DNA of 64,000 nt from Naegleria gruberi. Lineage: Eukaryota. The notes under the pieces are model-generated. The model had not been told where the DNA came from, ran no database searches, and saw only the letters and a program-made list of their open reading frames with translations. Below, piece by piece: positions 8,863 to 55,009 of the stretch. Both the position numbers and the translations under genes were made by a program. The DNA lies in the NCBI GenBank assembly GCA_000004985.1, contig GG738879.1; one strand, given 5' to 3'. Each line of letters opens with the position of its first letter. Position 1 is the stretch's first letter.

Positions 8863-8912
8863 NNNNNNNNNNNNNNNNNNNNNNNNNNNNNNNNNNNNNN
8901 NNNNNNNNNNNN
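8863..8912. other. Assembly gap (50 N). A further single N lies at 8804.
   Basis: A literal N run in the sequence. Confidence 0.99.
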
Positions 8913-9066
8913 ATTGGTTGGTAAAATACTGTGTGTAAAGATTTCTTGCAAGAATCACAGCGTCTTTCAAAATAGATACCTTGTTCCTTGTTATTTTGTA
9001 AAGACATTTTTTTTCGTCTAAAAACTGGCTTTCGACTGAAAATTCGAATCAAAAAAAACACAATAA

Positions 9067-10004: not shown

Positions 10005-10442
10005 ATAAATAAATCAGTTTTACTCAAATTATGAAAATTGTAATGGTCAACAGAGTAAATTAAGGGAAACTTTCAGTCAAATACCAACACACTAAAAGCC
10101 GCATAGAAACAGAATGTTCACCGAATAGTCACTGAATGTTTACCATATAATAACTGAATGGTTACTGAATATTTATTGAATAGTTACCCACCAATTTCAT
10201 TCCTTTACCCAACAATCAACCGACTACCAACCAACTAACACTGAACTAAAACGGTCAGGAGAGTATGGGCTGATATTCGATTAATTTCTGGAAAATCGTT
10301 CAGTTGTTTTCGGAAACAAGTTGGGGAAAATTAGGGTTGTAGTCGGTGATAGTAGGGTTGTGGATGGGGTTTAGACGGAACATAGCCAACTAAAAACCAA
10401 CTATAACACTGTCTATTACCCAAGTACTCCACTCTTAGGTTA

Positions 10443-11738
10443 ATGAAAAAGAAAGATTTACGTGCTTTATTTACTGTACTTCCAAATTTGAAATATTTAA
10501 GTTTAGGAATGAATGTTACAGAATCTTTAATTAGTACAGAATCATTTCTGAGTACATATTGTCATAAATTAGAAACACTCCATTTACAATTATTACCTGA
10601 AAATCAAAAAAAAATTGCAAAATTATTAAATGGAATATTTAATCCATCAACAACAACAATATCCAATCTCATTGATATTAGAATATTTGTAACGGATAAT
10701 AATCCAACAAGTAATAGAAAATTAAATAATTTTACATTTGATTTTAATTCATTTCCATATTTAAAATATTTATTTCTTGATATTACCTATATTTATACAT
10801 TGGAATCAATTAGTAATGTATTAAATTCAAATAATATTTCAAAATTACAAGAATTTGGATTTGGAACTAATAGAAAATTTATTGAAAAATTACAATTTAA
10901 TTCTAGTGAAAATTTAAAAAATTTAAAAAAATTATTTTTAAATAGAACCGAAATGATGACAAATATAGATAATCTTCCTTCATTAGAATTATTATATATA
11001 GATGAATATGAAAAAAAGTTTTATTCCACTGCAAACTATTCAAAACCATGGAATTTAGCATCTAATGTGAAAATGCCATCTCTAAAATATTTACATTTAA
11101 GTCTTATAAATGAAACTCATTTACCTGATAGATTAAATGTGGAATCATTTAAAAATATTAAATATTTTTATTTTGAATCTCAATATAATATTGATTTATC
11201 AGAATTGAGTAAATTAAATTTAGAAATATTAATTCTTAAAATTTCTTTAAAATATAACAAGAATATATTTCATCACATTTCTAAAATTTCAACCTTGAGA
11301 GATTTAACATTTCGTAAGCCTATTTGGGATATTGATTTGAAATTACTTTGTAAATTACCAAATTTAGAATATCTTAATATTAGATTGGAATTTAAAAGTG
11401 AAATATCTTTTACTTTTAATTCACTAACTACACTCTCAATTTATTCAGATAATTTGAAAGGATTAAACTTTTTTCAAATATCAAATTTACCAAAATTGAA
11501 AACTTTAATAATTCGTAATGATTTGGATAATAACCATACGTGGTGGTTGCAACCATTATTTCCAAATTTACAAATAATTAAAGCAAGTTATAACAGTTTT
11601 GGAATATTTTTAGCATCTCAATATAATGATGGTATGAATTTTGGTGAGTATGAGGTTTCACAAAGAACAGCAACTCATTTACAAAATGAATATGTATGGC
11701 TCTTTCCAAAAAAATTTATTTTTGGCAATGCTCAATAA
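10443..11738 (+). CDS. LRR protein fragment. A duplicate of the 3' two-thirds of the F-box/LRR gene, lacking the F-box; truncated paralogue, pseudogene or assembly artefact.
   Basis: A 431-aa ORF whose first ~190 codons are near-identical to 8300..8860, followed by a further ~240 codons of LRRs. Confidence 0.45.
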   Translation: MKKKDLRALFTVLPNLKYLSLGMNVTESLISTESFLSTYCHKLETLHLQLLPENQKKIAKLLNGIFNPSTTTISNLIDIRIFVTDNNPTSNRKLNNFTFDFNSFPYLKYLFLDITYIYTLESISNVLNSNNISKLQEFGFGTNRKFIEKLQFNSSENLKNLKKLFLNRTEMMTNIDNLPSLELLYIDEYEKKFYSTANYSKPWNLASNVKMPSLKYLHLSLINETHLPDRLNVESFKNIKYFYFESQYNIDLSELSKLNLEILILKISLKYNKNIFHHISKISTLRDLTFRKPIWDIDLKLLCKLPNLEYLNIRLEFKSEISFTFNSLTTLSIYSDNLKGLNFFQISNLPKLKTLIIRNDLDNNHTWWLQPLFPNLQIIKASYNSFGIFLASQYNDGMNFGEYEVSQRTATHLQNEYVWLFPKKFIFGNAQ

Positions 11739-15797: not shown

Positions 15798-17992
15798 ATG
15801 GAACGAAATGCTCCCACCCACTTGACCAAAATAAATGATCTTGATGAACGTACTTTGAGAAAATTGTTGGTTAAAGCCACAAAGATTAAATCCAATCCAT
15901 CAATCTATTCTCACAGAATGGAAGATAAGGTTTGTCATCTTTCTTAATCAAAATTTTAACCAATAATCCACAGTCACTGTTAATGTTATTTGAAAAACCG
16001 TCACTTCGTACACGTCTTTCATTCGAAACAGCAATGACATCATTTGGTGGAAATGCCATCTATTATAGTGCCGATGAAGGACCGTTCGGAAAGAAGGAAA
16101 ATGTAAAGGATACTGCCATGTGTGCAGCTCAATATGTTGATGCATTTGTGTTGAGATTAAAGTCTAGAGAAAGTTTGTTGGAATTTGTAAAATATTCAAA
16201 AGTTCCTGTTATAAATGCCTTAGATGATTGGGCTCATCCTTGTCAAATATTGGCTGACCTGTTTACCATTGCAGAATTGAAATTAAATCCAAAACCACTC
16301 CACGAAAATCATCTCAACTTTGATAGACTGAAAATGGCTTACTATGGTGATTGTAGAAATAATGTCACTTATGATTTGATGAGAGCTGCTGCCATGATGA
16401 ATTTCAAACTCGTTCTCTCTTGCCCTGATAATGATGACTATAAACCAGTCCAAGAAGTTTGGGATGAAATCAAGAGAATCAATGAGAAGAGTGTAGAATG
16501 GATTGAAAATCCACTTGAAGCTTCTAAGGGATGTGATGTCATCTATACAGATTCATGGATGTCCTACCACATTCCTGAAAGTATGCTTCAAACCAGAGAA
16601 CAAGCATTGAAAAACTATCAAGTTAACATGCCAATATTGAAAAATGCAAAGAGTGATGTTATTTTCATGCATTGCCTTCCTGCAAAACGTTCTGAAGAAG
16701 TTACAGATGAAGTGATGGACTCTGTACATTCAGTTATCTATCATCAAGCATGGAATAGACAATGGGCTCAACAAGCACTCCTCCTCTATGTCATCTATGG
16801 ACCCAGTATCTTTTCAGAACACGAATATGAATCCGAGCTCTTATCAGAGGAAAAGTACTTTGCTATGGCTCCAAAACATCTTGGAACGATGCACTCCATT
16901 AGTAAGAAGAAGCACGAGTCTGTAAATAAGGGTGAAAAGAAATATCTGAAACATGGAAACAAGGAGAGAATACTTATAAGCTTTGGAGGAAATGCTCTTC
17001 AAAGTGATTCCACAAAGGAGGTAACCTATGAAGATTTACATTCCAACATTGATAAGAATTGTTCTGCACTTGCCAAATTTCTCCAAAATTGCAAGCAATC
17101 CAACATTTGCATTACACATGGAAATGGTCCTCAAGTTGGTTTCATTCACAAGGAATTGAATCATGAATCCCAAATGCCACTCGATGTTTGCGGAGCCATG
17201 TCTCAATCATTCATTGGTTATCAATTCCAACAATCCCTGATGAATAATATGCACCAACAAGACACGAAAGGAAATGTCCATGTTCGTTCTGTTACCACAC
17301 TCATCACACAAACTCTGGTGGATCAAAATGACAAGGCTTTCCAACATCCTAACAAGCCTGTTGGTAAATTCCTCTCTCCTGAAGAGTATGAATCATCAAA
17401 GAAGGACAAACAAATGATGACTTTCCACAAGTTTGATGAAGGCTACAGAAGAGTTGTTCCTTCTCCAACACCTATTGATATCATTGAATTGGACACTATC
17501 AAAACACTCTTCAATGAAGGACACTTGGTTATTTGTAATGGAGGTGGAGGTATCCCTGTTGTTAAAAGCCGAGATGAAGTTGGTGGTGATGAGAAAGCAA
17601 TGATTGGTAAAAAGCAAGCACAAAGAAAGAACCACCTGATGGGCATAGAAGCAGTCATTGACAAGGATAGATCCAGTTCCCTGCTAGCACAAAAGCTTAC
17701 TGTCGATTACTTTATCATTCTCACCAAAGTGGATCATGTCTACTTGAATTACTCTTCAAAAAAGGAGGAGAAGAAGCCTATTACTTCAATGGATGTTGAA
17801 ACTGCTCGACAATACATTACGGAAGGATGCTTTGAAGAAGGTACCATGCTACCAAAGATTGAATCAGCCACTGAATTTGTTACCAAGACTGGAAAACCTG
17901 CTCTCATCACAAGCTTGGACAATTTCATCAGAGAAACTTCCAACAATGAAATCAAACTACGTCATATTGAAGGTACTTGGATTGTTCCATAA
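15798..17992 (+). CDS. Bifunctional ornithine carbamoyltransferase-carbamate kinase fusion protein. join(15798..15929,15974..17992), ~717 aa.
   Basis: The N-terminal half carries the carbamoyltransferase motifs SLRTRLSFE (STRTR), HPCQILAD (HPxQ) and HCLPA (OTC-type HCLP). The C-terminal half carries the carbamate kinase signature ITHGNGPQVG plus the EGTMLPKIE-type C-terminus. Exon 1 (MERNAPTHL...HRMEDK) joins through a 44-nt GTTTGT..CAG intron in phase 0, restoring the conserved OTC N-terminus. Confidence 0.8.
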
Positions 17993-21386: not shown

Positions 21387-21457
21387 TGCGTCGACCGGGA
21401 ATTGAACCCGGGTCACGGCGATGGCAACGCCGTATTCTACCACTAAACCATCGACGC
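21387..21457 (-). tRNA. tRNA-Gly (anticodon GCC).
   Basis: Cloverleaf: acceptor GCGTCGA/TCGACGC, anticodon loop TTGCCAT, T-loop GGTTCAATTCC. Confidence 0.85.
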
Positions 21458-23215: not shown

Positions 23216-25114
23216 ATGGTTTTATCCGTTAGCAACAAGGTTATTCTCGACAATTTCGAAAGAACCTCTCCACTATCTTGGACATTTAGTAATGGAGCAG
23301 AGTTTCCTGGTGCTGTGGGATCTCTTTCTTTGGCTCCTAATCAAGGATATGATGGCTCAACAGGTCTTAAATTATCATTCAATTTGACAGCTGGTAATTA
23401 TGTTGCTGCAAGTTATCACTTGCCACAGACACAAACTTTCACAATTTTGGGGTTCAAAGCGTTGGCACCTGTCAATAATTTGTTCAGTGTGAGAATTTCT
23501 GATCAGACTGGACAAGTTTTTCAATACAGAGCATTGAGGTTATTTGAACAATATGAAAGAGAATGGGCAGATATCATGGTAAATATCAATACATCACCAA
23601 CTTCCTCATGGGGAGGTGCTGCTGATAGAGTTATTCATTTCCCAATTAAGGCAATTAGTATCTTGACTGAAATTGCTGAGAAGGGAACTAGTCAAGATGT
23701 TGGTTACGTTATCATTGATGATGTTTTTGTTTCTAATCAATCAGTTATTGATTTGGATGTGACAAATTTTGTCAAAAGTCCATTCGTAGGTCAAAATGAA
23801 GATGGAATTGACATGCTATCAAGAATGGGTGTCAATATTCACTTTACAAGTGATGACAAAGGATTAGATGCTGTCAAAGAAGGTGGTTTCTCGTGGATTA
23901 GAATGGATTTGTTCTGGTCAACAGTTGAAACAACCAAGCAAGTTTACAATTTCTCTTCTTATGACACCTTATTGACTGCGTTGAAATTGAGAGGATTGAA
24001 AGCATTATTCATTCTGACCTATTCCAATACTCTCTACACTGGAAGTTCCTCTACTCCACCAACTACAGATATAGCCATCGAAGCTTTTGCTAATTATAGT
24101 AGAGCAGCTGCTATACATTACGCTAATGAGAATGTTATTTTCGAGGTTTACAATGAGGCAGATCGTCATGGATTCACTCCAACTACTTATGCTGCATTAT
24201 CAAAAGCTGCACTAGCTGCCATTAGAGAGGGAAATCCGAATGCTCAAGTTTCTACAACTGGTGTTGCTGGTTTTTCGTATGGTTTTGTGAGAGGTTTCAC
24301 ATCTGAAGGTGGTGCTGCCTCAAAGAATGGTTCTCAATTGTTTTCTGGAATAGGATTGCATCCTTATGGAGTTGGTGGTCCTAAATCACCTTTTGGAAGA
24401 TTCCCTGGTTTGACTAGAAAGTTCAGATCAATTATTAATGATAATATCAATGCCACTCTTCAAGGACACGCATCTACATTGAAAAGTGCTCAAACATCTT
24501 TGATTTCTACTGTGCCACCTGTTTGGGATACCGAATGGGGTCTCTCAGCAACTGATTTCGACTCCAATTCGAATGGATTGGACGAAACCGCATTGAGACT
24601 TCATGCTAATAATGTAGTAGGAAGATTACTCTCCTCATGCGCAGTTGGTTTCCCAATTTTCATTTATTACGATTTGAGAAATGATGGAGTTATACCAACA
24701 AATAGAGAACACAATTTCGGTTTGCTTTTCAATAATTATACTGACAAGCCAGCCATGAAAGCTGTCAAGCAATTGAGTTCAATGGTAAGAAATAGATTAT
24801 TTGATGGATTTATTCAAATTGAACACCCTTCTGTAACTGCCATGAGGTTTAAAAGTTCAAACGATTCAGTTGTTATCTTGTTGCCAACTGAAAGTGGAGC
24901 TTCAGTTATTGTTAAGGCAAATAATGCCAGTTCAGTAGTGGATATTTTTGGCAGAAATGTAACTGTTTCAAAAGATAATACGTTTATGGTGAAGGAAACT
25001 GAAGGATTGGTCTATGTAACTTTTGTGACGCCTAAAGAAACACCAACCGTATGTCAACCAACAGTTCAAACATCAAACAGCACAAATATTTCATCACCTG
25101 AGAAGGTAATTTGA
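23216..25114 (+). CDS. Glycoside-hydrolase-like protein (possibly GH5/cellulase superfamily) with an N-terminal beta-sandwich (CBM-like) region.
   Basis: Motif VIFEVYNEAD resembles the GH5 NEP acid/base region; TIM-barrel-like alternation. Family assignment is tentative. Confidence 0.45.
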   Translation: MVLSVSNKVILDNFERTSPLSWTFSNGAEFPGAVGSLSLAPNQGYDGSTGLKLSFNLTAGNYVAASYHLPQTQTFTILGFKALAPVNNLFSVRISDQTGQVFQYRALRLFEQYEREWADIMVNINTSPTSSWGGAADRVIHFPIKAISILTEIAEKGTSQDVGYVIIDDVFVSNQSVIDLDVTNFVKSPFVGQNEDGIDMLSRMGVNIHFTSDDKGLDAVKEGGFSWIRMDLFWSTVETTKQVYNFSSYDTLLTALKLRGLKALFILTYSNTLYTGSSSTPPTTDIAIEAFANYSRAAAIHYANENVIFEVYNEADRHGFTPTTYAALSKAALAAIREGNPNAQVSTTGVAGFSYGFVRGFTSEGGAASKNGSQLFSGIGLHPYGVGGPKSPFGRFPGLTRKFRSIINDNINATLQGHASTLKSAQTSLISTVPPVWDTEWGLSATDFDSNSNGLDETALRLHANNVVGRLLSSCAVGFPIFIYYDLRNDGVIPTNREHNFGLLFNNYTDKPAMKAVKQLSSMVRNRLFDGFIQIEHPSVTAMRFKSSNDSVVILLPTESGASVIVKANNASSVVDIFGRNVTVSKDNTFMVKETEGLVYVTFVTPKETPTVCQPTVQTSNSTNISSPEKVI

Positions 25115-25200: not shown

Positions 25201-25274
25201 GCCTTCCTAGCTCAGTTGGCAGTAGCGCTGTCCTAGTAAGACAGAGGTCTTGGGTTCGATTCCCAAGGGAGGCA
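25201..25274 (+). tRNA. tRNA-Thr (anticodon AGU).
   Basis: Acceptor GCCTTCC/GGGAGGC, anticodon stem CTGTC/GACAG with loop CTAGTAA, T-arm CTTGGGTTCGATTCCCAAG. Confidence 0.85.
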
Positions 25275-25313: not shown

Positions 25314-28069
25314 CTATTTAGTGTCCAATCGATCTTCAAAAGCCCATGAGCTTCGCATACTAACATCGTCCACCATTTCTCTGAGTTTTTCCAATCTCAT
25401 ATTCGCCACGAAATCAGTCGGATCTCTGCTCACAACCTTTCCAAATAACTCAATCGCCTTCACCACATCTTCACTTTTAAGATTATTCATAGTTGAGCTC
25501 ATGTTCATGGAATCCACCACCCCAAAAGTGTGTTTCTGTCCATCAATTGTAAGCTTATCTGGAACGCATTCACCATGAGAGTAACTTCCAAACATTATCT
25601 CGATTGCATCTTCAAAGTTGGTCTTGTTTTTGGCTTTCAATTCGTGCGAGTTATTCGAAACTGTTGAAGGTGTTCTTGTGAGAATTTCAAATACCCAACT
25701 TGCTTGTTGTCTTCCAACAACTGCTAAGCGGCCTATTTTTCTTTGATTCCTCTTTGGAAGAAGTGGAGATGTTTCAATTACTTCCTTCGTAACGAGAATG
25801 TCAACTCTGTAATGTTTAGTCAAAGATTCCAAACGAGCTGCCAAATTGACAGTATCTCCAATAATGGTTGGATCAACTCTTTGATCTTCACCAATCAATC
25901 CAACTGCACATTTACCTCTTGCAATTCCAATTCCAACTCTAACTGTTGGATATTTCTTACTCTTATTGAATTCTAATAATCTTCTTTGTATTTCCATTGC
26001 TGCCAAAACAGATTGACCAGGAGTTAAAAACAATGCCAAAATACCATCACCCAAATACTTGTCAATATATCCACCATGTTCTCTCACAACTGGTCCAACC
26101 AATGACAGATAATTATTCAAAAATTCAAAAGTCTCATCTGGTGTCATCTTTTCACAAATACTTGTATAACCTCTAATGTCAGCAAACAACACATCCAATT
26201 CCATTTCAAAGTAATCTCCGTGCGTAAGGTCCATTACACTCTCCTTCTGAACAATCGACATGAATTCCTTTGGAACAAATTTGTGAACTGTCTCATTGTG
26301 CAATCTTAACAAGTCCTGAATGGTCCTCGAAAAGATTAACGACATAATTGATGAAAGGAAAATTCCCATAATTCCACCCACTGTATATCCTATCAATTCC
26401 TTAATAGCAAGCCCCTCTGATTCATTCTGATCCAACAAAATATCATCCCTAATCATATTCTCAATAGTTTTCAATTCATCGATTTTTTGTGTAATATTCC
26501 AGAACCAATTTTGAGCTGTAAAAATTGTCTTGGCATAGGTCAAATTGAAAGGAGAGGCCAATATGTATGATTCCATCATGTTTGTAACGGTCGCATTATT
26601 CACACTCAATGAAAGTTGCTCAAAATATTTGAAAGATCCAACATTTCTAGATTTGGCATCAATGATTGTGAACATGGTATCAAATCTTGATCTCAAATAC
26701 AAGTAACTGACATAGAAATCATTGGTAAAGGCACCAGCAGCTAATCCATTACTCACAGTAGCTCTCTTCTGACCCAAACTTTCCTTCATGACCATTAGGA
26801 GTGAATAAATATTCGATTTGATAAGAAAATCTGGATCTCTACCTAAACTTGTCGCCACATTTACAATATCAATCATATTCTTAATGATGGTAGTATAGAA
26901 ATCGAGAGCTACCTTCGCCACTGGAAATTTCAATGTTGAAATATTGTAACGATGAGCAGAGAGTATATGAAACGATGCATCAATCATATCGAGAGTTGGT
27001 TCAACTTTTTGTTTGGCAATTGTTTCGTCTTTTGCATAGGTAAAATAATCAATAATCCCCTTTTTTGTCGCATTCCAATTCAGTAATTGTAAATCTGTTG
27101 CATTTCGTTGTAAATCAAGCTCAGTAGTAAATGAGGTACCTTTCGAACCTAAATATAAAGAAGAAGAACCTCTTTCTTTTTGAATTTCATGAATAATATC
27201 CGAAATACCAGTTGTGAATATGGTAAGAAGAGTGTTGGCATCAGATTCTTTCACTCTCTTTCATCAAATTCAGTTTCGAATAATTACAATAAGAAACTTA
27301 CCAAAACTGAATAATTAATTAAAATTCCTTCAAATACTATCATACAAGCTAAAGAAAAGATAAAAATCAGAAGTAATTTGATAGAAAGTGGAATCTTTGC
27401 CAATATTTTTGATAAAGTCCACTTTCTTGCTTCCTTTTTCGAGACAACACTATACGAAATGTTAGAAGAAATACTGGAAGAAACTCCCATCATATTCTTT
27501 TCATATGAAGACCTAGACCCTGTATCCATTGTTCCTTCCTCAAGTGTTGTCAAATAATCTCCCTTCATATCATTTTCCTCAGCTTGTTTCGAATAAGTAC
27601 TTAGTGAACTAACTGATTTCTCCTTTTGCAATAAACTAATTTCCTTAGAACTTCTCAATGAATTCATTGTTGAACCTTGTTTTAGAAGAAAGTTGGTGTT
27701 GAGTGTTTTTTGAGTTCGAACCGAAACTAAACTTGGTTTACTCGCACTAGAACTCATGGCACCTAGATTAAGAGGAGTAATTTGATTTCGTTTAGGAGGA
27801 TTACTTTCAGGTCGAGAAACATGATGCTGATGAAGAAATAAATCTTCTGACTTGTTAGAAACTTTAGACGAATCGCCTACTATTGTATTCCTATCGTGCT
27901 GTTCTTCGTTCATTATTGAGGAAAGTCTTTGATGTTGTATGGATGATGTTTCGTCTATTGAATTCGAAAGTAATTCATCAGTTGTAGCACGGTGATGGTG
28001 TTCATGCGGAGAAGATGAATTACTACTACTACCGGAAGAAGATGTATGTTGCTTATACTTGTCAGACAT
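25314..28069 (-). CDS. Receptor-type class III adenylyl/guanylyl cyclase with an extracellular NIT-like sensor domain (paralogue A). complement(join(25314..27257,27302..28069)), ~903 aa.
   Basis: Exon 1 is a low-complexity cytoplasmic region plus TM1 (KIPLSIKLLLIFIFSLACMIVF). A 44-nt GTAAGT..AAAG intron is in phase 0. Exon 2 holds a NIT-like domain (IIHEIQKERGSSSLYLG; second half-repeat ESLGQKRATVSNGLAAGAF), TM2, and a cyclase domain with FADIRGYTS, KYLGDGILALF and GIGIARG. Confidence 0.8.
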
Positions 28070-28422
28070 GCTATAGTCAATTTTTCAAAGAACTCATGCA
28101 CAGCTGTTTCGAATGAAATGTTTTTTTAAGAGATACTTAAAGTATAGTTCTCTAAGATTCGGTTAATTGTTGGTGAAAACGTAAAAGAACTGAATCATAT
28201 TCTTAATGTTTTATGAGAGAGAAACTTCAACGAATCAACCCTTGGATAGAATAATCGAAACAGATATCTCCTTCGCTTCCTATACATAATAAAGGAAAGA
28301 ATTGTAATTTTTAGTAGTGACTACTACCGCTCTGCTCATCTTACGAATATTCAATCTAGAATTTCCCTCCAAAAAACATCACCCTCTCAAAACAAACCAC
28401 ACCAATTGACCATTCCAATCAT

Positions 28423-31059
28423 TTATTTAAAATCAAGTCGATCTTCAAATGACCACATTGTATTGGCACTCAAAATTTCTTCCAATTTTGTTATTCTCAT
28501 TTGAACTAAATAATCCTGCGAGTCAACTTCTTGAATTTGTTTCAGATAATCAAGTGCTTGAATTGGATTAAACAAATCCTTTTCATACATCATGGCAATG
28601 GATGCTTCGAATTTATCCTTATGTTTCTTCTTACTGTCAACTGAACCAAAAGATGGAGATTCTGTCAAAATTTCAAATATGGTGCATGATTGTTGTCTTC
28701 CAACAACTGCAATCTTTCCAATATTTCTGTATTTGGCATTGGATAAAAGTGGTGATGAATCAATTACATCTCTTGTTACCATAATGTCAACTCTGTAATG
28801 TTTAGTCAAAGATTCCAAACGAGCTGCCAAATTGACAGTATCTCCAATTATGGTTGGATCAACTCTTTGATCTTCACCAATCAATCCAACTGCACATTTT
28901 CCTCTTGCAATTCCAATTCCAACTCTAACTGTTGGATATTTCTTACTCTTATTGAATTCTAATAATCTTCTTTGTAATTCCATTGCTGCTAAAACAGATT
29001 GACCAGGAGTTAAAAACAATGCCAAAATACCATCACCCAAATACTTGTCAATATATCCACCATGTTCTCTCACAACTGGTCCAACCAATGACAAATAATT
29101 ATTCAAAAACTCAAACGTCTCATCTGGTGTCATCTTTTCACAAATACTCGTATAACCTCTAATGTCAGCAAACAACACATCCAATTCCATTTCAAAGTAA
29201 TCACCATGATTCAAATCCATGACGCTATCCTTTTGAACAATCGACATGAATTCCTTTGGAACAAACTTGTGAACTGTCTCATTGTGCAACCTTAACAAAT
29301 CTTGAATAGTCCTTGAAAAGATTACAGCCAAAATGATAGAAGCAATTACAACACTGAAACCACCAACACAATAACCCATAAGAGAATCTTTGGCCGATGA
29401 TTCAATACTTTGCGAGTTATTAAATATGCCATCTCTAATGTTATCTTCCACTACTTTTAATTCATCAATCTTGGTAGTCACATTCCAAAACCAATTCTCT
29501 GCAGAAAACACCGATTGGGCTTTTGTTAAATTGAATGGTGAAGACAACATGTATGATTCCATCATATCAACAACAGCGTTACTCTTTACATATCCAGTTA
29601 ATTGTTGATAGTATCCAAGACTATCCCTGTTCCTCGATTTGGCATCAATGACCATGTACATGGTATCATATCTTGACTTTAAATATAAAAAGTTTACATA
29701 GAGATCATTGGTGAAAGCACCAGCAGCCACAGCATTACTACCAACAGCTCTTCTCTGACCTAAACTTTCCTTCATGACCATCAAGAGTGTATAGATGTTG
29801 GTCACGACGAGGAATTTACGATCTTCAGCCAAAGCAGCCAATACAGACACCACATCAATCATATTCTTAATGCAATTTGTGAAAAAATCCAATGCAGGTT
29901 TGGCCACTGGAAATTGTAAATTTGAAATCTTTTCTCTGTGAGAAGGCAGGACATTCAAATAGATATTCTCAATAATTTGAATAACTGTATACGTCTGATT
30001 CCTTGTAATTTCATCTTGTTCTATCAGTAAATCGAAAAATTCTGCAATAGAAGCCCTAGTTTCATTCCATTTAGAGAGGGCAAGGTTTGTGGCATTCCTC
30101 TGTGTAGCCAATTCAACCACAAACTTTTTACCTTTACCACCAAGAAAGAGTGATGAAGATCCACGTTCCTTTTGCAGTTCGTGGATGATTTGGGCAATAT
30201 TGGTGGAGAAGGTCGTTAATTTCTGAATACTCTGTGCTTCAAGAACTCGCTATATAGAGTAAGGGCCAACACCATGTTATTGTTATTGTGGAAAATCAGA
30301 GTTGTAATGAAACATCAATAAGAAAAATTGACAAATACCCAATTAAGGGATGAAACATACCTTTGCAGAATCATTCACTAATATGGCTCCAAAAACCACA
30401 AGCGAAATGATTGATAAAATCACAATAAAGAAAAGTTTCACAGGAAGAGGAATCATGGCAACGAGTTTTGAAAAGCTTACTCTCTTCTTTCGTTGCTGGT
30501 TTCTACTGACGATAGAGTAAGAGACTACTGATGAGGATATCGATTTCTGCGTGATTGACGTTCTCATCTTTTCCATGTCATCAAATGGATCTGTCTTGGC
30601 AAGATTTTGAAGGTTATTATCAAAGTTTTTAGAACTGGTGATACTGGATAGGAGTGAGCTCTGCGTTTTAACTGCAACTGTCTTGGATTCCTTCTTTTGA
30701 GTAGAGTTGTTTTTATAGTGATGATTCGGTTTGGATGAATTCATGGGAGAAACCTTTGCCTTAGAAGAGAAGAATATTGAGGTACTTAAGGTATTTGTTG
30801 TATTCCTTGTTGATTCTTCTTGTTGTTGCTCTTCATCTTGTTGTTGTTCTTCTTCAATGGTTGTACTCTTTTGATACGAAGGAGCATTTCCTTCCTCACT
30901 ATATGGTTTCTGAACGGGTGAGGGATCCTCTTCCAGAGTAGTAGTCCCACTCACAGTGTATCTATTCTCTCTATGTGAGAGATCCTGATGATGTTCCTCA
31001 TGATGTTGATGCTGATGATTTGTCATTTGGTGTGAATTTGTTTTTTTCTGTTGTACCAA
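28423..31059 (-). CDS. Receptor-type class III cyclase with a NIT-like sensor (paralogue B). complement(join(28423..30249,30362..31059)), ~841 aa.
   Basis: Same architecture as A. Exon 1 ends ...FGAILVNDSAK|GTATGT and exon 2 begins RVLEAQSIQKLTTFSTNIAQIIHELQKERGSSSLFLG. The 111-nt intron is in phase 0, and the catalytic core is ~97% nt-identical to A. Confidence 0.8.
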
Positions 31060-31931
31060 GAGATAGATGCAAACACAGCAAAACGCTCATTCACACTCCT
31101 TGTGACTTGGAAATATAGTAAAATTCGCAATGAAGCTGTTGCACACTGTAAGAGAATATTCAAATCCGTTTTTTCTGCTTCCCAACCCTTAATAAGATAT
31201 TAAGATATAATTTTAGGTAGAAAACTCTAAAGGCCAATAATATAACCACCGAAATTTATAGTAATAACCTGATAGTGAACAATAAACGCGATAATTCTTC
31301 AAGTATTAATAGCTGTAATTGAATAGAGAGCTTTCATTAATTTGTTAAGTTGGTTCGTGGATTGGAAAAGGTAGTTTTTAAATTATCTGACCACAACCTC
31401 CGATAGTTTAGTTAAAACTTGGTAGATACCACATTGTATTCCCATTCATCCAGTTTGATGTTGTATCAAATGGCGATTCATGCAAGAATCGCTTTTTAAT
31501 TTTGAACTACTTCTCCCTGAATCAATAAAGCAGTTTTACAAAAGAATCCCATGTCTATTTCTATCTTGGTGACATTGTTCGATTTGCATCTCGGTAACAT
31601 TACCTTTCTAGTTGTGGCTATCTCTGATTCTATTAACAAACTTTCCAAGTCCATTACCTTAATGTAGATAGCATATTACTGACTATATTTGAAGTTTATC
31701 CGTCCTTCTTAATTATATTTCTAAGATTCTTTACTGTATTGAAAATGTACAATGAACCAGTTGATGATGCATTTGAATCAGTTCATTGACAAAATTGATT
31801 CGAATTGCATTGGGGAAATGTTGAACGTAAACTGTTAACCTTGTGAGTTGTTGCTTTCTGTTTGCACATTGTAAACAACAAACCAAAACCAGTTTTATCT
31901 GGAAAATGGAATTTTAAAAATCATAAAAAAA

Positions 31932-33754
31932 ATGCCCCGAATTACCACAAGTGACAAAAAGCGACGATTGAACAACAAGCGATATGATGAGTTTAGTAAG
32001 AATTTAGCATTCGAACTGGCCGATAATTCCGAAGATGAAAAGGAAATTGCACAACAAGAAGCAAGTGTTGACCATGAAACTTTTAAACAACTTCATCCTG
32101 TACAGATTAGCCCAAAGGATGTTGATATGATCGTGAGTGCTGTGGTTAAAAAGGCTGATTGGAGAGTTAAATTGGGAGAATTAGAGCTCAAGTGGAGGCA
32201 GGAATGCTCAAGGCAGAATATTTCAGTAGCTAGTGCGAATGTTGCTTTTGAAATTCTACGTGACATTAATTTTCAAGGTTAGTTGTTGATTGGATTTTCA
32301 ATTAATTTATTTGATAATTTTTTACATGTTTTAATGTCATCAAATTATTTAGGAAGTGGATCCAAACAATGTTGTGGTAAGTGTTGAAATAATTCTTGAT
32401 AAGTTGTGACACATTGAAAAAAGGATGTTGTGGAGCTAATCCTCAATCAGAAAGAGAGGAAAGAGCATCAATCAGGAAGAATGACAAACCATACGTCCCA
32501 AGAGGTGTAGAAGATCACATCTCAGACGAAGAAGAAGAAGAAGATGAATACTTTGATTTCGAAAGGTACTCTAGAAGTACAAGATTTTGTGAGTGTCCTT
32601 GTGTACATTGCTCAACTAAACTTCCAAAATATAATGGGGCTATTGTTGCTGATAATTTAATTCCCAGCGATTTGAAACAGAGATTGAAAGATGAAATTGC
32701 AAAATTGGAGAATGTTCCAGAAGATAAGAAAGATTGGCATCCAGGAGCAAATAAGCAAGTATTGGACTTGATTCATCCTTCATTGTATTGTTATGTTGAT
32801 AAGGTTAGTGTTTCTGAAAAGGAAATGGAACCTGAAGTTGAAAAAGAAAGACATTGGTATCAACCAAAACCAAGTTATGAAAAACCAAAATCCAATAGAT
32901 GTCAATGGTTACCTGCTGAATTTGAAGTAACATATGATAGCAATGTTGGATTAGATGCTAAAGATGCTGAACCTACTGTGAAAATCAATAGCTATATCAA
33001 TAATATCGATCAAATCAAACAACCAGAACTTTATGATGTTATTGGTAAAATATTTGGTAAATTCCACAAACAAATGAAACAGAGTCATCATTCTATTGGA
33101 AGGGCAGACACATTACAAGTCATTGTAAAAGCTGCCAATATTATTGTAACCCCAGATAAGCCATTTTACTCTGGAGGAACTTTCCATATGGAAGGAATGC
33201 CCTATGAACACATTGCTACAACTGGTATTTATTATTATCATTCAGAAAATGTAAAGAATAGTTATTTGGAGTTTAGATCTGGTATTTCAGAGCCATACGG
33301 ATACCAACAAGACGATGTTAAAGGATGTTTCGAGCAATATGGACTTCATGATGGTGATTTACAATTCAGAAGTGAAGGAGCAATTCACACCAAGGAAGAT
33401 AGATGTATCATTTTCAATAATACCGACCAACATAGAGTAAGACACTTTTTCCCTATTGATCCTTCGAAACCAGCCATTAGAAAGATACTCGTCTTTTTTA
33501 TTGTGAATCCAAGGAATAGAATCATCTCTACACAAGATGTTGACGTGCAAAGATTTGATTTCCTTATTAATAGATGCTTTATTTTGAACAAATTACTCCC
33601 ATTCCCAATCGTTCACACAATTGTACAATTTATGCCACACTTTACTCATGAGGAAGCTTTGAAAAATAGAGAAGAACTTATGAACCAGAGAAAGTACTAT
33701 GTCGATGAGCAAAACTTGGAAATAGAAAGAGAATTTTCACTTTGTGAACATTAG
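31932..33754 (+). CDS. Hypothetical protein, possibly DUF4246-like. A 5' ORF 31932..32282 is probably spliced to 32396..33754 (donor CAAG|GTTAGT at ~32279); the exact acceptor is unresolved.
   Basis: 452-aa main ORF with a motif GGTFHMEGMPYEHIATTGIYYY. A GTTAGT donor closes the upstream 116-aa ORF. A candidate 24-nt mini-exon would leave an implausible 27-nt intron. Confidence 0.45.
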
Positions 33755-34147
33755 ATTTATTATAAAATCAATTGTTATATGCTAAAGTTAATAAAAGAAC
33801 ATTTAATTTTTGATGTTCCAAACTTTACTAAATATTAAGAAATGAGGTATTGAACAAGTTGTTCCACTCCTATCTGAAATCAATTGGAAGATGTGAAAGA
33901 AACAAGTAAAGTATAAACATGTTGACCATTTTTCATTTGAAAAAGTATTAAAATAATCTGAATTTTTTTGCAAGCCGTAGCAAGTGCCAATAAAAATGTG
34001 TACTAATCAGAGGCTTCTAAAAATGGAAATATACAATAGTTTAGAAAAATAAAAACACGATTATCAAGATAGAGATCCATACCACCAAAGAATAAAGAAT
34101 AGTCGCCCAAAAATTAAAGGTATTCAATAAAATAGTAAAAGTATGAC

Positions 34148-34217
34148 TCGAGTGCCGGGAATTGAACCCGGGTCGCCAGAGTGACAGTCTGGAATGCTAC
34201 CACTATACCACACCCGA
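34148..34217 (-). tRNA. tRNA-Asp (anticodon GUC).
   Basis: Anticodon stem-loop CCAGA-CTGTCAC-TCTGG, T-arm CCGGGTTCAATTCCCGG, D-arm GTATAGTGGTAG. Confidence 0.85.
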
Positions 34218-34565
34218 TTTCACATATCGTTCACTAAAATATTTCTTTAAAATAAATAACAAAATAAATTTAATATTTACAATTTTTTAAAAAATTAAAT
34301 ATTGTTTCCGACATCAAGCTTACAAGTTGAGGACATGATTCTCTTCCAATTGCTTAATTTTAACCAATACAATCATTTTCAAAGAAACACTATCACTTCA
34401 ATTAAAGATGTCTATTTACTGAGTAGTGCTGCTAAACACTTTTGTAAACAAACAAAACACCGAACAAAAAAAATTCCCTACAACGTCGAAATTTTTGTTG
34501 TCCATTTTTCTATCATCAAGAACAACACTCTTGTCGGCACCATCATATAAAAATTCATCATCATC

Positions 34566-35591
34566 ATGTACGCTGCAGCACGTAGATTTACCTCTTCTTC
34601 AACTTTGGCATCAGTCTACAAGGCCCAATCTGCCAAGACTCTCTTTGCCAAGAATGCTAAATTTTCTCAACATAGCAACGCCAACAAGCAACTCATGTCT
34701 CAAGTTGGTATGGTCCAAAAGGCCTTCTCTCACGACGTAGAAATTAGCGTTAAATTTGTTTATGATGATCAAAACGTTGTTTTGGAATTGTTGAAGGAAC
34801 ACGGAGGAAAGGTTGAACAAACATCAAACATTAACGTTACATACTTTGATAATGTTCCACAAGATGAAGTCCTTCCAGAAGCTGCTGAAGTTGCCAAGGA
34901 TAGACCACAAACACAAGAAAGATACACCATGACTGCCAAGGATTCTTGGTTGTTGAAGGAAAGTACACAAGATTCTATTGAATGGAAGTGTTCTTATCCA
35001 AATGTCGAAGAAGGAAAGACTCACTTGGATCAACCACTCACTGCAAGAGTTCCAATGTATCAAGAAGCTATTGGAGAAAGAGAAATTCGTAGATTTTTAA
35101 ATTTACAACAAGATATGACTGCTGAAGCTAGAACTGGTACAAAGTTGCCATCTTTGGATGAAGATTTGCGAAAGAGATTAAGTATTGTCCCATTCGCCAA
35201 GATTGACTATACTGAAACTACTGTATCTGTATCACCATCTATTAATTATGCTAATATTAATGTCACTTTGAGAGATGCTTCTTTCGGATACAAATTGGGT
35301 ACTCTTAAATGTAGTGTTCAAAATATTAGCAGAGAAATGGCTGATGATTTGGGTGTACATTTGTTGCGTTTGTTCGAATCCACTAAATTGAACAAGTTAA
35401 TACAACCACACGCTAGATCTATTGTTGAAGAATACTTGTATAGAACTCGTCAAGGAACCCACTACAAGACTCTTTTGGAAGCTGGTATTCGTGATGATAA
35501 GCTTATGGATCCTGAAACTGCCAGAAATGAAATTAATGCCATGTTGGAAAAGCAAGGAAAGTCACCACTCGCTGAACCAGAAGAAAACTAA
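34566..35591 (+). CDS. Hypothetical protein with an N-terminal mitochondrial-presequence-like region.
   Basis: 341-aa ORF starting at an ATG. The N-terminus MYAAARRFTSSSTLASVYKAQSAK is basic and amphipathic. No firm family assignment; a CYTH-like EISVKF motif is only a weak hint. Confidence 0.45.
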   Translation: MYAAARRFTSSSTLASVYKAQSAKTLFAKNAKFSQHSNANKQLMSQVGMVQKAFSHDVEISVKFVYDDQNVVLELLKEHGGKVEQTSNINVTYFDNVPQDEVLPEAAEVAKDRPQTQERYTMTAKDSWLLKESTQDSIEWKCSYPNVEEGKTHLDQPLTARVPMYQEAIGEREIRRFLNLQQDMTAEARTGTKLPSLDEDLRKRLSIVPFAKIDYTETTVSVSPSINYANINVTLRDASFGYKLGTLKCSVQNISREMADDLGVHLLRLFESTKLNKLIQPHARSIVEEYLYRTRQGTHYKTLLEAGIRDDKLMDPETARNEINAMLEKQGKSPLAEPEEN

Positions 35592-35899
35592 ATTTCTCTC
35601 TCAGCAATAATTTTCACTGTGTAATTAAACCTAAAATATTTTATAAAAAAATGGGGCTGATACCTAATGTTAAATAGTCAATTTGTTGTTTGACAGGAAG
35701 TTAATTTGATTCATGACATTTCATCATTATGAAAATTAATTTCTATCATCATGTTATTCCAATCCGAGAATTATTTAATATTAGAATTTAACAATAAGAA
35801 GAAAAATGCCACTCCTTCAAATTAGTGAAGATGAAATGGATGAAATCAGAGCCTTCTATGAGCTCTTACTAACAGGGAGATGATGATGAAAAAACCGAG

Positions 35900-36631
35900 T
35901 TGGCAGTTAGTATTAAAATTCCAGGAGGTAAATCATTGTCAACCTCCAATCTAATAACCAATAGGAGAATGACTTCAACAGATATTCAAAGTCTCTTCCA
36001 TAGAATTGGATTAAAAGTAACCTCCGATCAAATCAGAGAAATTATTAAGGGAGCACACGAATCCTACTATAGAAAGTCTGACAATTCACTCCCTAATGAT
36101 TCAATCAATTTTAATGAATTTGTTCATCTCATCAATGATAAACCACCAGCCAATGTTTCTCGAGAGCAATTAATCACAGCCTTTAAAATCCTCTCAGAGA
36201 ATGAGGAGGGAGAAACAGAGGGCTACATGTCCGTTGATGAATTGGAGAGGTACCTCACTCATTTTCACTACTGTACCGAGAAGCACTTTGAAGAGGAACA
36301 GGAAATGAATGATGAAGATGCCGAGTATTTGGAAAATAGTAATGTTAATACTTCCCTCAATTTGAAGCAAGTTAAAAAGGCTCGGAATTTCCTCACCGAT
36401 CCTCAATATGATATGAGACCTTTCACTAAGAAGGACTTTCACAAATTGGTTGATATTTTAGATCCCTATTGTAGTGGACATATTAATTATTTGAAATATG
36501 TTAGCATGATGTATGATGGATTAATACAAGGTGAAGAAATTTCCGAGAGTAATAATAATAACACTAATAACAACACTAATAACACTAACAACACCAATAT
36601 TCATCACCACCATAACCATAATGGAAAGTAA
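35900..36631 (+). CDS. EF-hand (calmodulin/myosin-light-chain-like) protein with a C-terminal Asn/Thr/His low-complexity tail. The 5' end is uncertain.
   Basis: EF-hand-like segment QLITAFKILSENEEGETEGYMSVDELERYL. The ORF opens with TTG; the first in-frame ATG gives MTSTDIQSLF. An upstream small ORF (35806..35880) may be a uORF or an upstream exon. Confidence 0.45.
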   Translation: MAVSIKIPGGKSLSTSNLITNRRMTSTDIQSLFHRIGLKVTSDQIREIIKGAHESYYRKSDNSLPNDSINFNEFVHLINDKPPANVSREQLITAFKILSENEEGETEGYMSVDELERYLTHFHYCTEKHFEEEQEMNDEDAEYLENSNVNTSLNLKQVKKARNFLTDPQYDMRPFTKKDFHKLVDILDPYCSGHINYLKYVSMMYDGLIQGEEISESNNNNTNNNTNNTNNTNIHHHHNHNGK

Positions 36632-37049
36632 TTATATCACCTCCATCTCTTTCATTACTGAACAGCAACCTGTTGTCCTAACGGGCTTATTGAATATATT
36701 GTGAGATACGAATTCAGCAAGAAATCAAAGAAGAATAACCCTGAACTGGATTGCATCACAATGATGAAAATACGTTAACTGATAATAATTGTCCGTTTAA
36801 CAACATAAGAAGCAAGAAGAATCTGCTTTAAGGTCACCTTAGTCTTTATTAAGAAGATAACAAGTAAAAAAACAAACATCATCACCATTGCGTCGTTCAT
36901 CATCATTGCTTGGAAAAATTGCTCTCAAGTCCTCTCTCACTGATAGAATAGATATGGAAATATAAGGACAATTCACCACATCAAATAGATCAAATTTTTA
37001 TTATAATATATAATATTATTGAATACATAGAGAAAGTAGAGAAAATAGA

Positions 37050-39521
37050 ATGAATAACTTTGTAACAGCTTTTCACTTAACTTCTATAGAGGATTTTAGT
37101 CCTATACAACGAGCTTACTTTCAAAACAATGGCGACCCGCAGCAACATCCACCTAATACACCTGACAATTCAACTACCACCTCTCACACCCCAATATCTG
37201 TACTCTCCTCAATTCCCTTCTATTCTTCGAAGGCCATTTCCAAGAATAATAGTGTTGCTCCTCTTCATGTATCAAATTATAGACCAACCACACCAAAGAT
37301 TAGAAAACAAACTTCTCTAAGCTTTATAAGAAGTTCCAAGACCTTTGATGTTTCACATTTACAGCGAGTAAGAATCTCAACCAGCTCATCAACGAGTCCT
37401 CTCATTGAGGAACATGTAGAAAAACCGAAAATCACAACATCACTACAAAAGTCTATTGCAGCATCTTCGACTGTTCCCTATGCTGTGGTTACATCATGTG
37501 ATACGAAGAGGATTAATCTTTCAAAATTAGTGGCAATGATTCCACTGCGAATCAAATTGTTCTTTATTGTCATTGTATCGATAGTTTCACTAGTGGCATT
37601 TGGTGCTATTCTTATTAATGATGCAGCAAAGGTATGTTTTTAAGCAATATATTAATTTGACAAGTTAATTATTTAACATTAATTGAACCTTTTTCAGAGA
37701 GTGGTGGAAACACAAAGTGTAAAACAATTAACGTTATTTTCAACAAATATGGCACAAATGATTCATGAATTACAAAAGGAGAGGGGTGCATCCTCTCTCT
37801 ATCTAGGAGCTAGAGGGACTAAATTTGGTTTAGAGCTTGGAAAACAAAGAAATGTAACAAACTCAGCTATTGAAAATTGGCCATCAACAAAAAAGTCTAT
37901 CGATGAGTTTTTCAATTTACTGACAGATAAGGATGATGTAGCTAGAAATCAAACTTATTCCATGGTGTCAAAAATTGATGAATATCTGGGTCAGCTGCCA
38001 AATCAGAGAGAAATGATTCAAAATTTACAATACAACTCATCCAAGCCAGTTATTGATTACTTTTCAGATTGTATTAGGGATATGATTGATGTAGTTTCAG
38101 TGGCTGCATCTTTGGCAGACGATAGAAAATTCCTAGTCATATCAAATATTTACACACTAGTCATGGCTTTAAAAGAAACATTGGGACAAAGAAGGGCCAT
38201 TGGAAGTAATGCTATGGCCGCAAGCGCTTTCTCTAATGATTTTTTCTTTTCATTTCTTGATCTCAAATCTAAATATGTGGCCCTCTATCAGGTTATAGAC
38301 ACCAAGTCAAGAAATAAGGATTGTATTGAATTATTTACCGATTTGGCAAATTATGTACAAAATTCATCATTGATAGATATGATGGAAAGAAACATGTTAT
38401 CCTCCCCTTTTAATTTATCACAGGCTGAACAATCATTTTCTGCTGAAATGTGGTTTTGGACCATTACTGAGAAAATTAACCAACTCAAAATGGTCGAGGA
38501 CAAGATTAGAGATTCAATATTTTCAAATGGTGAGGACATGAAAAAAAGTTCCATGGATGCTTTGATTGGATATAGTGTTGGAGGTTTTTGTGTGGTTCTT
38601 TCCTCCATTATTTTAGCTTTAATCTTTTCAAGAACGATTCAAGACCTGATGAATCTGTACGATGAGACAGTTCACAAATTCGTTCCAAAGGAATTCATGT
38701 CGATTGTACATAAGGATAATGTTGTAGATTTAAAGCACGGAGATTACTTTGAAATGGAATTGGATGTCATGTTTGCTGATATTCGTGGTTATACAAGTAT
38801 TTGTGAAAATATGACACCAGATGAGACGTTTGAGTTTTTGAATAATTATCTGTCATTGGTTGGACCAGTTGTGAGAGAACATGGTGGATATATTGACAAG
38901 TATTTGGGTGATGGTATTTTGGCATTATTTTTAACACCAGGTCAATCTGTTTTAGCTGCAATGGAATTACAAAGAAGGTTAATTTCTCTGAACCAATCTA
39001 AGAGGTATCCAACAGTAAAAGTTGGTATCGGTATTGCAAGAGGTAAATGTGCAGTTGGATTGATTGGAGAATCTCAGAGAGTTGATCCAACCATTATTGG
39101 AGATACTGTCAATTTGGCATCACGTCTTGAATCCCTTACAAAATATTACCAGGTGGATATTGTGGTAACAAGGGAAGTTATTGAAGCATCTCCACTGTTG
39201 GATCCATCAAGATTTAGAAATATTGGAAAAGTTGCAGTTGTTGGAAGACAACAGGCATGTTCAATTTATGAAATTATTACTCAATCTCCAAACAATGATA
39301 AGGAATTGAAGAAGGCTGTCACAAAAGAAAAGTTTGAGGCAGCTATTGAAATGATGTATGATAGGGATAATTTTTATCCAGATGAAGCTCTTGAATATCT
39401 CAAACAAGTTGTTGAAGAGGATGAAAATGACTATGTAGCTCAATTGAGAATGTACAAGCTGGAAGAAATTCTAAGTTCAGAATGCACTTGGCAGTATGAA
39501 GATCGATTAGATTTTAAATAA
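37050..39521 (+). CDS. Receptor-type class III cyclase with a NIT-like sensor (paralogue C). join(37050..37631,37698..39521), ~801 aa.
   Basis: Exon 1 ends ...LVAFGAILINDAAK|GTATGT. The 66-nt intron ends CCTTTTTCAG, and exon 2 begins RVVETQSVKQLTLFSTNMAQMIHELQKERGASSLYLG. TM2 is GYSVGGFCVVLSSIILALIF. The catalytic domain is near-identical in protein and nt sequence to A and B. Confidence 0.85.
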
Positions 39522-42634: not shown

Positions 42635-42708
42635 GCAGCGATAGATCAGTTGGTTAGATCGTAAGCCTAACACGCTTAAGGTCGCGGGTTCAAGCCCCGC
42701 TCGCTGTA
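42635..42708 (+). tRNA. tRNA-Val (anticodon AAC), copy 1.
   Basis: Acceptor GCAGCGA/TCGCTGT, D-arm GATC...GATC, anticodon loop CTAACAC, T-arm GCGGGTTCAAGCCCCGC. Confidence 0.85.
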
Positions 42709-43704: not shown

Positions 43705-43776
43705 TGTAGGAAGACAGGGAATCGAACCCTGATCTTAGGAACCACAATCCCATGTTCTACCACTGAACTATCTCCC
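43705..43776 (-). tRNA. tRNA-His (anticodon GUG).
   Basis: Anticodon stem-loop TGGGA-TTGTGGT-TCCTA, D-arm GTTCAGTGGTAGAAC, T-arm CAGGGTTCGATTCCCTG. Confidence 0.8.
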
Positions 43777-43909
43777 TTCTTGCCATTATCTTTCAATATT
43801 CACTAACAGCACATACTTCAATAAAGTCAATCAAAAATTTATCCTATCAAAATCCTTAATTTAAACCTTCTTATTCCTCGTATAAGAAGGAACCTACAGA
43901 GAATCATCA

Positions 43910-54935: not shown

Positions 54936-55009
54936 GCAGCGATAGATCAGTTGGTTAGATCGTAAGCCTAACACGCTTAAGGTCGCGGGTTCAAGCCCCG
55001 CTCGCTGTA
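54936..55009 (+). tRNA. tRNA-Val (anticodon AAC), copy 2, identical to copy 1.
   Basis: Same 74-nt sequence as 42635..42708. Confidence 0.85.

Follow-up and report, generated by a model that had tools for sequence, protein, structure and literature searches.

The NIT sensor domain was first defined in bacterial receptors by Shu, Ulrich and Zhulin in 2003 (as cited in PMC7400543 and PMC6381276), and the NIT domains of Pectobacterium and Dickeya chemoreceptors bind nitrate and nitrite with dissociation constants of 2–47 µM (PMC12358799). The only solved NIT structure belongs to NasR of Klebsiella oxytoca (4AKK), a soluble cytoplasmic NIT-ANTAR RNA-binding antiterminator. Among eukaryotes, cyclases carrying a NIT domain between two transmembrane (TM) helices were described in placozoans and many bilaterians, where they are guanylyl cyclases (GCs) of the ANPR type (Moroz et al. 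2020, PMC7400543). One of them, Platynereis NIT-GC1, produces cyclic GMP (cGMP) upon exposure to a nitric oxide (NO) donor, and its NIT domain is required for this response (bioRxiv 10.1101/2023.08.02.551600), while pelagophyte algae encode NIT-kinases as well as a TM-NIT-TM protein (PMC9481584). Here, we analyzed a stretch of 64,000 nucleotides from Naegleria gruberi (assembly GCA_000004985.1, contig GG738879.1; hereafter, the window), which encodes three paralogous cyclases with a NIT domain, designated A, B and C. Our literature search found no paper linking NIT, Naegleria and cyclases, although it did not reach the genome paper (PMID 20211133) or Monteagudo-Cascales et al. 2023 (PMID 37186477).

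The window had previously been annotated from its letters alone. Given the animal and pelagophyte proteins cited above, the novelty which this initial annotation ascribed to a NIT receptor cyclase in a eukaryote was overstated. Its dictyostelid frame was mistaken, since proteins of the window exactly match Naegleria gruberi NEG-M, a heterolobosean, and the comparison with the cyclases ACA, ACB, ACG, sGC and GCA is therefore inapplicable. Dictyostelium ACG is likewise a receptor cyclase made of one chain, and its sensor is extracellular; that sensor, however, is a CHASE domain, whereas the Naegleria sensor is NIT. The Naegleria genes have been public since the 2010 genome, and their architecture was already known from bacteria and animals. 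A, B and C thus add N. gruberi proteins, uncharacterised but present in the public annotation, to a receptor type already known. Nothing about them is mechanistically unexpected, and the interest of the locus lies in the putative ligand, in an origin probably separate from that of the animal NIT-GCs, and in gene conversion restricted to one domain.

The map of open reading frames (ORFs) showed the same arrangement for each gene: an ORF of 200–260 aa that stops soon after a hydrophobic segment, followed 30–220 nt further on by an ORF of 565–646 aa. Because an in-frame stop ends exon 1, one intron is required per gene. Each gene contains one short phase-0 GT..AG intron in the same place, 2–4 residues past the first TM helix (TM1), and the first residues of exon 2 are always R-V-x-E. 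The gene models are as follows.

Gene A, 25314–28069, minus strand: 903 aa, equal to XP_002675238.1 ('adenylate/guanylate cyclase', UniProt D2VL74); from ORFs, splice sites and an exact public match
Parts of gene A, minus strand: exon 1, 27302–28069; intron, 27258–27301 (44 nt); exon 2, 25314–27257, including the stop codon
Gene B, 28423–31026, minus strand: 830 aa, equal to XP_002675239.1 ('predicted protein', UniProt D2VL75); from ORFs, splice sites and an exact public match
Parts of gene B, minus strand: exon 1, 30361–31026; intron, 30250–30360 (111 nt); exon 2, 28423–30249
Gene C, 37050–39521, plus strand: 801 aa as spliced here; from ORFs and splice sites
Parts of gene C, plus strand: exon 1, 37050–37631; intron, 37632–37697 (66 nt); exon 2, 37698–39521

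Every residue of spliced A and B is the same as in XP_002675238.1 and XP_002675239.1, and the public annotation uses the same joins, even for the 44-nt intron. The exon 1/exon 2 joins proposed in the initial annotation were in this way borne out for A and B by exact public models, while C is without one: an exact-sequence look-up of the spliced 801-aa protein found no exact public counterpart. The public model of C therefore probably differs from the present splice at the 5' end or at the join. The gene boundaries given earlier stand for A and C. The start of B had been placed at 31059, but the TTG there merely opens the ORF as called mechanically; the gene begins at the ATG at 31026. Exon 2 of C was 99% identical to a metagenome protein (P0001; 587 aa, called from exon 2 only), and the contig of this protein (L001) represents Naegleria DNA present in ENA sample ERZ929261. 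The tblastn search of the window with C as query returned just A, B and C and no further copy.

The three spliced proteins can be aligned end to end and share one order of parts: a low-complexity cytosolic N-terminus of 160–230 aa, TM1, the NIT domain, a second TM helix (TM2), a class III cyclase domain and a helical tail. Their positions are listed below.

TM1 (signal anchor): C 37551–37622 (plus), A 27311–27382 (minus), B 30370–30441 (minus); hydropathy maxima 2.7–3.1, with a K/R-rich upstream flank
NIT domain of C, 37698–38555, plus strand: aa 195–480; proposed ligand arginines R223 (37782–37784) and R360 (38193–38195)
NIT domain of B, 29389–30249, minus strand: aa 223–509; arginines R251 and R389; from Pfam and invariant columns
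NIT domain of A, 26403–27257, minus strand: aa 257–541; arginines R285 and R421; from Pfam and invariant columns
TM2 and 43-aa cytoplasmic linker: C 38562–38756 (plus; TM2 is 38562–38627), A 26202–26396 (minus), B 29188–29382 (minus)
Catalytic domain, class III (IIIb-type): C 38757–39275 (plus), A 25683–26201 (minus), B 28669–29187 (minus)
C-terminal tail: C 39276–39518 (plus), 81 aa; A 25317–25682 (minus), 122 aa with an insertion; B 28426–28668 (minus)

Based on this architecture and on the enzyme class, we hold with high confidence that A, B and C are paralogous single-chain receptor adenylyl cyclases. With a probability of roughly 0.6, we further propose that they are homodimeric NIT receptors in which a small anion, most likely nitrate or nitrite, would control the rate of cyclic AMP (cAMP) synthesis.

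All three genes match the Pfam NIT profile (PF08376) with E-values of 7e-40, 7e-30 and 1e-36 and scores of 105.6–138.3 bits, compared with a curated gathering cut-off of 24.9 bits; the match covers profile positions 1–238 of 239 in A and C and 28–237 in the truncated B ORF. When the ectodomain of C was compared directly with NasR (4AKK) by phmmer, the two aligned over NasR chain residues 61–300 (E = 2.6e-6), with the signature motifs HELQKERGASSLYL opposite HMLQCERGASNIWL and KETLGQRRAIGSNAMAASAFS opposite KELAGQERALGALGFARGQFS. An alignment of 28 NIT domains, namely those of A, B and C and 25 from bacterial chemoreceptors, contained 15 invariant columns, all of which are kept in the three Naegleria proteins: H23, E24, Q26, K27, E28, R29, G30, R104, K159, E160, G163, R166, A167, W252 and F253 (numbered by exon 2 of C, so that R29 and R166 are R223 and R360 of the full-length protein). 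E175 and R176 of NasR have been named as predicted nitrate-pocket residues (PMC7496416). They form the 'ER' of GQERA and stand opposite R165-R166 of C exon 2, the latter being R360 in full-length C. R50 of NasR aligns to R223 of C, an equivalence that rests on an inferred offset of 27 residues for the tag in the PDB chain. The equivalents of R50 and R176 lie within the HExQKERG and KExxGxxRA motifs, and this arginine pair is present in A, B and C.

The fold prediction pointed in the same direction. An AlphaFold2 model of residues 195–480 of C, built on the 28-domain alignment, was all-helical and had a predicted local distance difference test score (pLDDT) of 91.7 and a predicted template-modelling score of 0.90. 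In a Foldseek search of the PDB, the chains of NasR were the sole significant matches (template-modelling scores of 0.79–0.81, E = 1e-8), and the next match had an E-value of 0.33. The NIT domain of the Naegleria proteins is accordingly modelled as about 285 aa arranged in two four-helix bundles as in NasR. The two systems share the sensor fold, both motifs and the equivalents of R50 and R176; in contrast to soluble NasR, however, the Naegleria NIT domain sits between two TM helices and would drive a cyclase.

The hydropathy profiles contained exactly two strong hydrophobic segments, one on each side of the NIT domain, and in A and B there are 4–5 Lys or Arg among the 15 residues ahead of TM1. 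This pattern is consistent with an orientation in which the N-terminus is inside and the NIT domain is outside. The density of N-glycosylation sequons, 1.7–2.1 per 100 aa in the NIT domains compared with 0.7 in the cytosolic portions of B and C, was considered as topology evidence and set aside because it is too weak in an Asn-rich proteome. The linker of C carries the conserved element HKFVPKEF right ahead of the catalytic domain, and the motif FVP.EF is kept across the family. The AlphaFold2 model of the whole exon-2 product of C (pLDDT 91.1) contains an unbroken helix of 80 residues (exon-2 residues 249–328), composed of the last NIT helix, TM2 and the linker. Past this helix, the model continues with a short FVPKEF helix, the cyclase fold, and a tail of three helices and a terminal strand.

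The catalytic domains of A, B and C match the Pfam family Guanylate_cyc (PF00211) with E-values of 1e-15 to 1e-17 and 57–63 bits, above the cut-off of 21.9 bits, and 43 solved class III cyclases match at E < 1e-3. The nearest solved structures are Pseudomonas aeruginosa CyaB (3R5G, E = 4.7e-22), the BLUF-cyclases bPAC and OaPAC, and CyaC, all class IIIb adenylyl cyclases. The catalytic set of C consists of D555, K595, D599, T659, N666 and R670, and A and B have the corresponding residues. In the alignment with CyaB, the metal-binding Asp residues lie in FADIRG and GDG, and the transition-state Asn and Arg in VNLASRLE; the substrate Lys lies in IDKYLGDG (IDKFVGD in CyaB) and the Thr in DPTIIGD (DYTIIG in CyaB). 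Among 50 relatives, these six positions vary little or not at all, and the same D/K/D/T/N/R set is found in CyaB, CyaC, bPAC and OaPAC, which carry other sensors (MASE2, BLUF and others). In the classification of Linder and Schultz, the hallmark of class IIIb is reportedly a substrate-specifying Lys combined with a Thr in place of the class IIIa Asp. Because the catalytic centre is closest to that of class IIIb adenylyl cyclases such as CyaB, the likely product of A, B and C is cAMP, and the enzyme is predicted to be an active homodimer. The tail pattern K..T...FE.A.....A..F...L...P.D..A..L......W is common to a wider, mostly bacterial family. A TPR repeat is not claimed here, since the tail matches that family only below threshold (E = 0.016).

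Most of what the initial annotation had read from the letters was recovered by these analyses. The architecture shared by the three genes was reproduced by Pfam, hydropathy and full-length alignment, and the motifs it had quoted are all present (HELQKERG.SSLYLG, LGQ+RA.GSNA.AA.AF, FADIRGYT, KYLGDGILALF and GIGIARG). Its NIT assignment withstood the Pfam profile, the direct NasR match and the predicted fold, its TM-sensor-TM-cyclase topology agrees with hydropathy and with the AlphaFold2 model, and the adenylyl specificity it had only suggested fits the class IIIb-type centre predicted from the CyaB alignment and the 50 relatives. The outcomes it had named as contrary to its reading, i.e., a missing NIT hit or a different fold, a cytosolic sensor domain, or transcripts that do not use the proposed join, were not encountered.

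In the mechanism that we propose, the proteins would be homodimeric, like every class III cyclase. Between the two bundles, the arginine pair (R223 and R360 in C) would bind a small anion, with nitrate, nitrite or both as the most likely candidates, and the resulting movement could run along the unbroken helix, which begins with the last helix of the NIT domain and continues as TM2 and the linker. Relayed by TM2 and the FVP.EF element, it would then shift the two catalytic domains in register and thereby change the rate of cAMP synthesis. If the ligand is indeed of this kind, an extracellular inorganic anion would be converted directly to cAMP in a eukaryote, without a G protein, and Naegleria would offer a tractable protist system for NIT sensing beyond bacteria and for the reading of nitrogen oxides by a soil bacterivore.

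By analogy with the characterised domains, we give nitrate or nitrite as the ligand of the Naegleria NIT domains about an even chance, if not slightly less. The assignment is kept tentative because some NIT domains bind neither of the two. Several points weigh against the proposal as a whole. The three proteins are described here from sequence and models. After the last strand of the cyclase domain they read VGR where K-G-K is canonical and where CyaB, CyaC, bPAC and OaPAC have KG[FK]; the first Lys is replaced by Val while G-[KR] is kept, and this is the sole deviation seen. Nitrate assimilation is not known from Naegleria. For P. aeruginosa PA4520, the NIT domain was found to bind neither of the two anions, and the authors of that study suggested a superfamily with varied ligand specificities (PMC6381276). 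Furthermore, the activator of animal NIT-GC1 is an NO donor, and no nitrate response was shown for it (bioRxiv 10.1101/2023.08.02.551600).

The last two observations also speak for the same receptors having another ligand, such as a different small anion, a species derived from NO or a metabolite of the prey, perhaps a different one in each of the three proteins. The point made for PA4520 has likewise been made for the CvnA kinases of Streptomyces, and the Naegleria NIT domains are just 43–57% identical to one another. Nevertheless, both pocket arginines and every family-invariant position are kept in A, B and C, and wherever the ligand of a NIT domain has so far been identified, it is nitrate, nitrite or both. 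We consider another ligand rather unlikely, though it is the alternative that we take most seriously.

The location of the sensor leads to a second alternative. As the topology was derived from hydropathy and the positive-inside rule, which give an extracytoplasmic orientation only, and as no targeting information was found, the NIT domain could face an internal lumen (contractile vacuole, phagosome or endoplasmic reticulum) and report, for example, nitrogen oxides from ingested bacteria. Naegleria is a phagotroph. The bacterial and animal NIT receptors face outward, which argues by analogy for the cell surface, and nothing specific speaks against a lumenal position; overall we regard it as unlikely.

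In contrast to their diverged sensors, the three genes are nearly identical through most of the catalytic domain. The converted segments are as follows.

Gene-conversion tract of 420 nt: A 25797–26216 (minus) against B 28783–29202 (minus), 98.1% DNA identity
Core of about 190 nt: C 38735–38926 against A and C 38796–38977 against B, C being about 96% identical to each; 60 nt are identical in all three

The flanking coding DNA is about 55% identical. At the protein level, identity is 96–100% through most of the catalytic domain compared with 43–57% between any two NIT domains. Third-codon positions of A and B are 94–96% identical in the tract, whereas the values for the NIT domains are 26–46%, and of the codons for identical residues, 4–9% differ in the tract compared with 42–62% in the NIT domains. 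Purifying selection alone does not account for the near-identity, because the third-codon positions also match. The catalytic-domain DNA has been homogenised by gene conversion, while the sensors stay diverged; the conversion partners are two tandem copies (A and B) and one inverted copy (C) 7 kb away. The locus is thus a clean case of domain-restricted gene conversion, in which the output is uniform and the sensors are free to diverge. Since the sensors have diverged while gene conversion keeps the catalytic domains nearly identical, the trio probably represents three ligand specificities or affinities with one common output. A homogenised output domain would preserve dimer compatibility. A further, speculative reading builds on this and takes the trio as a combinatorial sensor array, in which A, B and C heterodimerise and their diverged NIT domains, each with its own ligand specificity, integrate several extracellular small-anion cues, nitrate or nitrite among them, into one cAMP signal of a free-living amoeboflagellate. 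This reading derives from the near-identity of the catalytic and dimerisation domain and from the class III active site being built from both subunits. We find it quite improbable; if true, it would give eukaryotes their first example of an adenylyl cyclase under the direct control of an inorganic nitrogen oxyanion.

The animal NIT-GCs, i.e., those of placozoans and bilaterians including Platynereis NIT-GC1 and NIT-GC2, share with the Naegleria proteins the TM-NIT-TM-cyclase layout in a eukaryote. Together with the generic public name 'adenylate/guanylate cyclase', and with a close solved relative, Cya2 (2W01), which has Glu at the Lys position and is a guanylyl cyclase, this resemblance could suggest that A, B and C are guanylyl cyclases as well. 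However, all three have the Lys of IDKYLGDG and the Thr of DPTIIGD exactly as in the adenylyl cyclase CyaB, and membrane guanylyl cyclases score far worse (ANPR1, E = 2.3e-5, compared with 4.7e-22 for CyaB); a guanylyl product is therefore very unlikely. The catalytic domains fall outside the ANPR-type group, the Lys/Thr pair not being of the GC type, in a comparison that contained no animal NIT-GC sequence. Because the catalytic classes differ, class IIIb adenylyl in Naegleria as judged from its residues and ANPR-type with cGMP as product in animals, the Naegleria and animal NIT-cyclase fusions are most likely independent.

To place the proteins among their relatives, we built a profile from the three exon-2 products and ran an exhaustive HMMER search with it against 1.84 billion representative proteins. 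The search found 78,395 cyclase relatives, only a handful of which matched across both domains. A word-indexed homologue search had returned almost solely bacterial NIT chemoreceptors, and the exhaustive search was needed for the eukaryotic relatives. Heterolobosean proteins combining NIT and cyclase were found in N. fowleri (XP_044559791.1), N. lovaniensis (XP_044554521.1), Willaertia magna (KAL9647576.1) and Acrasis kona (KAL0480528.1). Two metagenome relatives are assigned to eukaryotes because of their surrounding genes: P0050 has formin, RasGEF and kinesin genes as neighbours, and P0053, which has an added RGS domain, comes from a 99-kb contig that places it next to split kinase and WD40 genes. 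Two others are bacterial: P0057, with NIT and cyclase domains, adjoins Mur ligase and MoaC genes, and P0072 (762 aa, from an ENA contig) has NIT and cyclase domains and a hemerythrin domain at its end. These bacterial NIT-adenylyl cyclases resemble the Naegleria proteins in the order TM1-NIT-TM2-class IIIb, the FVP.EF motif, the tail pattern, and the invariant NIT and catalytic residues. The Naegleria genes differ from them by an intron, by the long low-complexity N-terminus, and by their position in a separate eukaryotic clade.

This clade was obtained in a crude tree of 157 catalytic domains, built by neighbour joining. In it, A, B and C first join Willaertia and N. lovaniensis; Acrasis and the NIT-cyclases from eukaryotic metagenome contigs follow, which makes one clade of 15 tips, and the sampled bacterial NIT-cyclases fall outside it. 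The tree points to one old lineage of NIT-class IIIb cyclases in eukaryotes, nested within bacterial enzymes, and is too weak to date a transfer or give its direction. A eukaryotic metagenome protein of the same clade, encoded at positions 8001–10550 of a JGI contig (L002; 3300062347, Ga0606064_0034; also P0080), combines NIT, a class III cyclase and a C-terminal RGS domain. With such an architecture, an anion sensor would be coupled to G-protein signalling as well as to cAMP. A bacterial 1202-aa NCBI protein (P0083) was considered as a triple-NIT cyclase and rejected, being by Pfam a chemoreceptor with three tandem NIT domains.

This combination of domains is one that bacteria typically carry, and the best solved relatives also come from them, which could point to bacterial contamination, to an artefact of recent transfer or to pseudogenes in decay. 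Such readings are effectively refuted by spliceosomal introns at a conserved position, long low-complexity N-termini, an AT-rich composition that is the same as in the flanks, eukaryotic flanking genes and tRNAs on a 384-kb N. gruberi scaffold, the relatives in N. fowleri, N. lovaniensis, Willaertia and Acrasis, and intact ORFs with complete catalytic residues.

The flanking genes encode F-box proteins, a TPR protein, a GH5-like protein, a DUF4246 protein, an EF-hand protein, a RhoGAP-MyTH4-WW protein, a RasGEF and an ankyrin-kinase. By exact look-up, neighbouring proteins of the window are XP_002675167.1 and XP_002675171.1 of N. gruberi NEG-M. Transfer RNA genes are scattered among the protein genes.

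Six tRNA genes (Gly-GCC, Thr-AGU, Asp-GUC, two Val-AAC and His-GUG): 21387–21457, 25201–25274, 34147–34217, 42635–42708, 43706–43777 and 54936–55009

The tRNA-Thr gene lies just 40 nt past the stop codon of gene A. Between B and C, an ORF of 452 aa (32396–33754, plus strand) accounts for the DUF4246 match (E = 1e-78). Two ORFs of 632 aa each (14–1912 and 23216–25114) were considered as paralogs, which they are not. An ORF of 686 aa (15932–17992, plus strand) contains carbamoyltransferase domains (ornithine/aspartate; PF02729 and PF00185) together with an amino-acid (carbamate) kinase domain (PF00696), and looks like a fusion of two steps of arginine catabolism.

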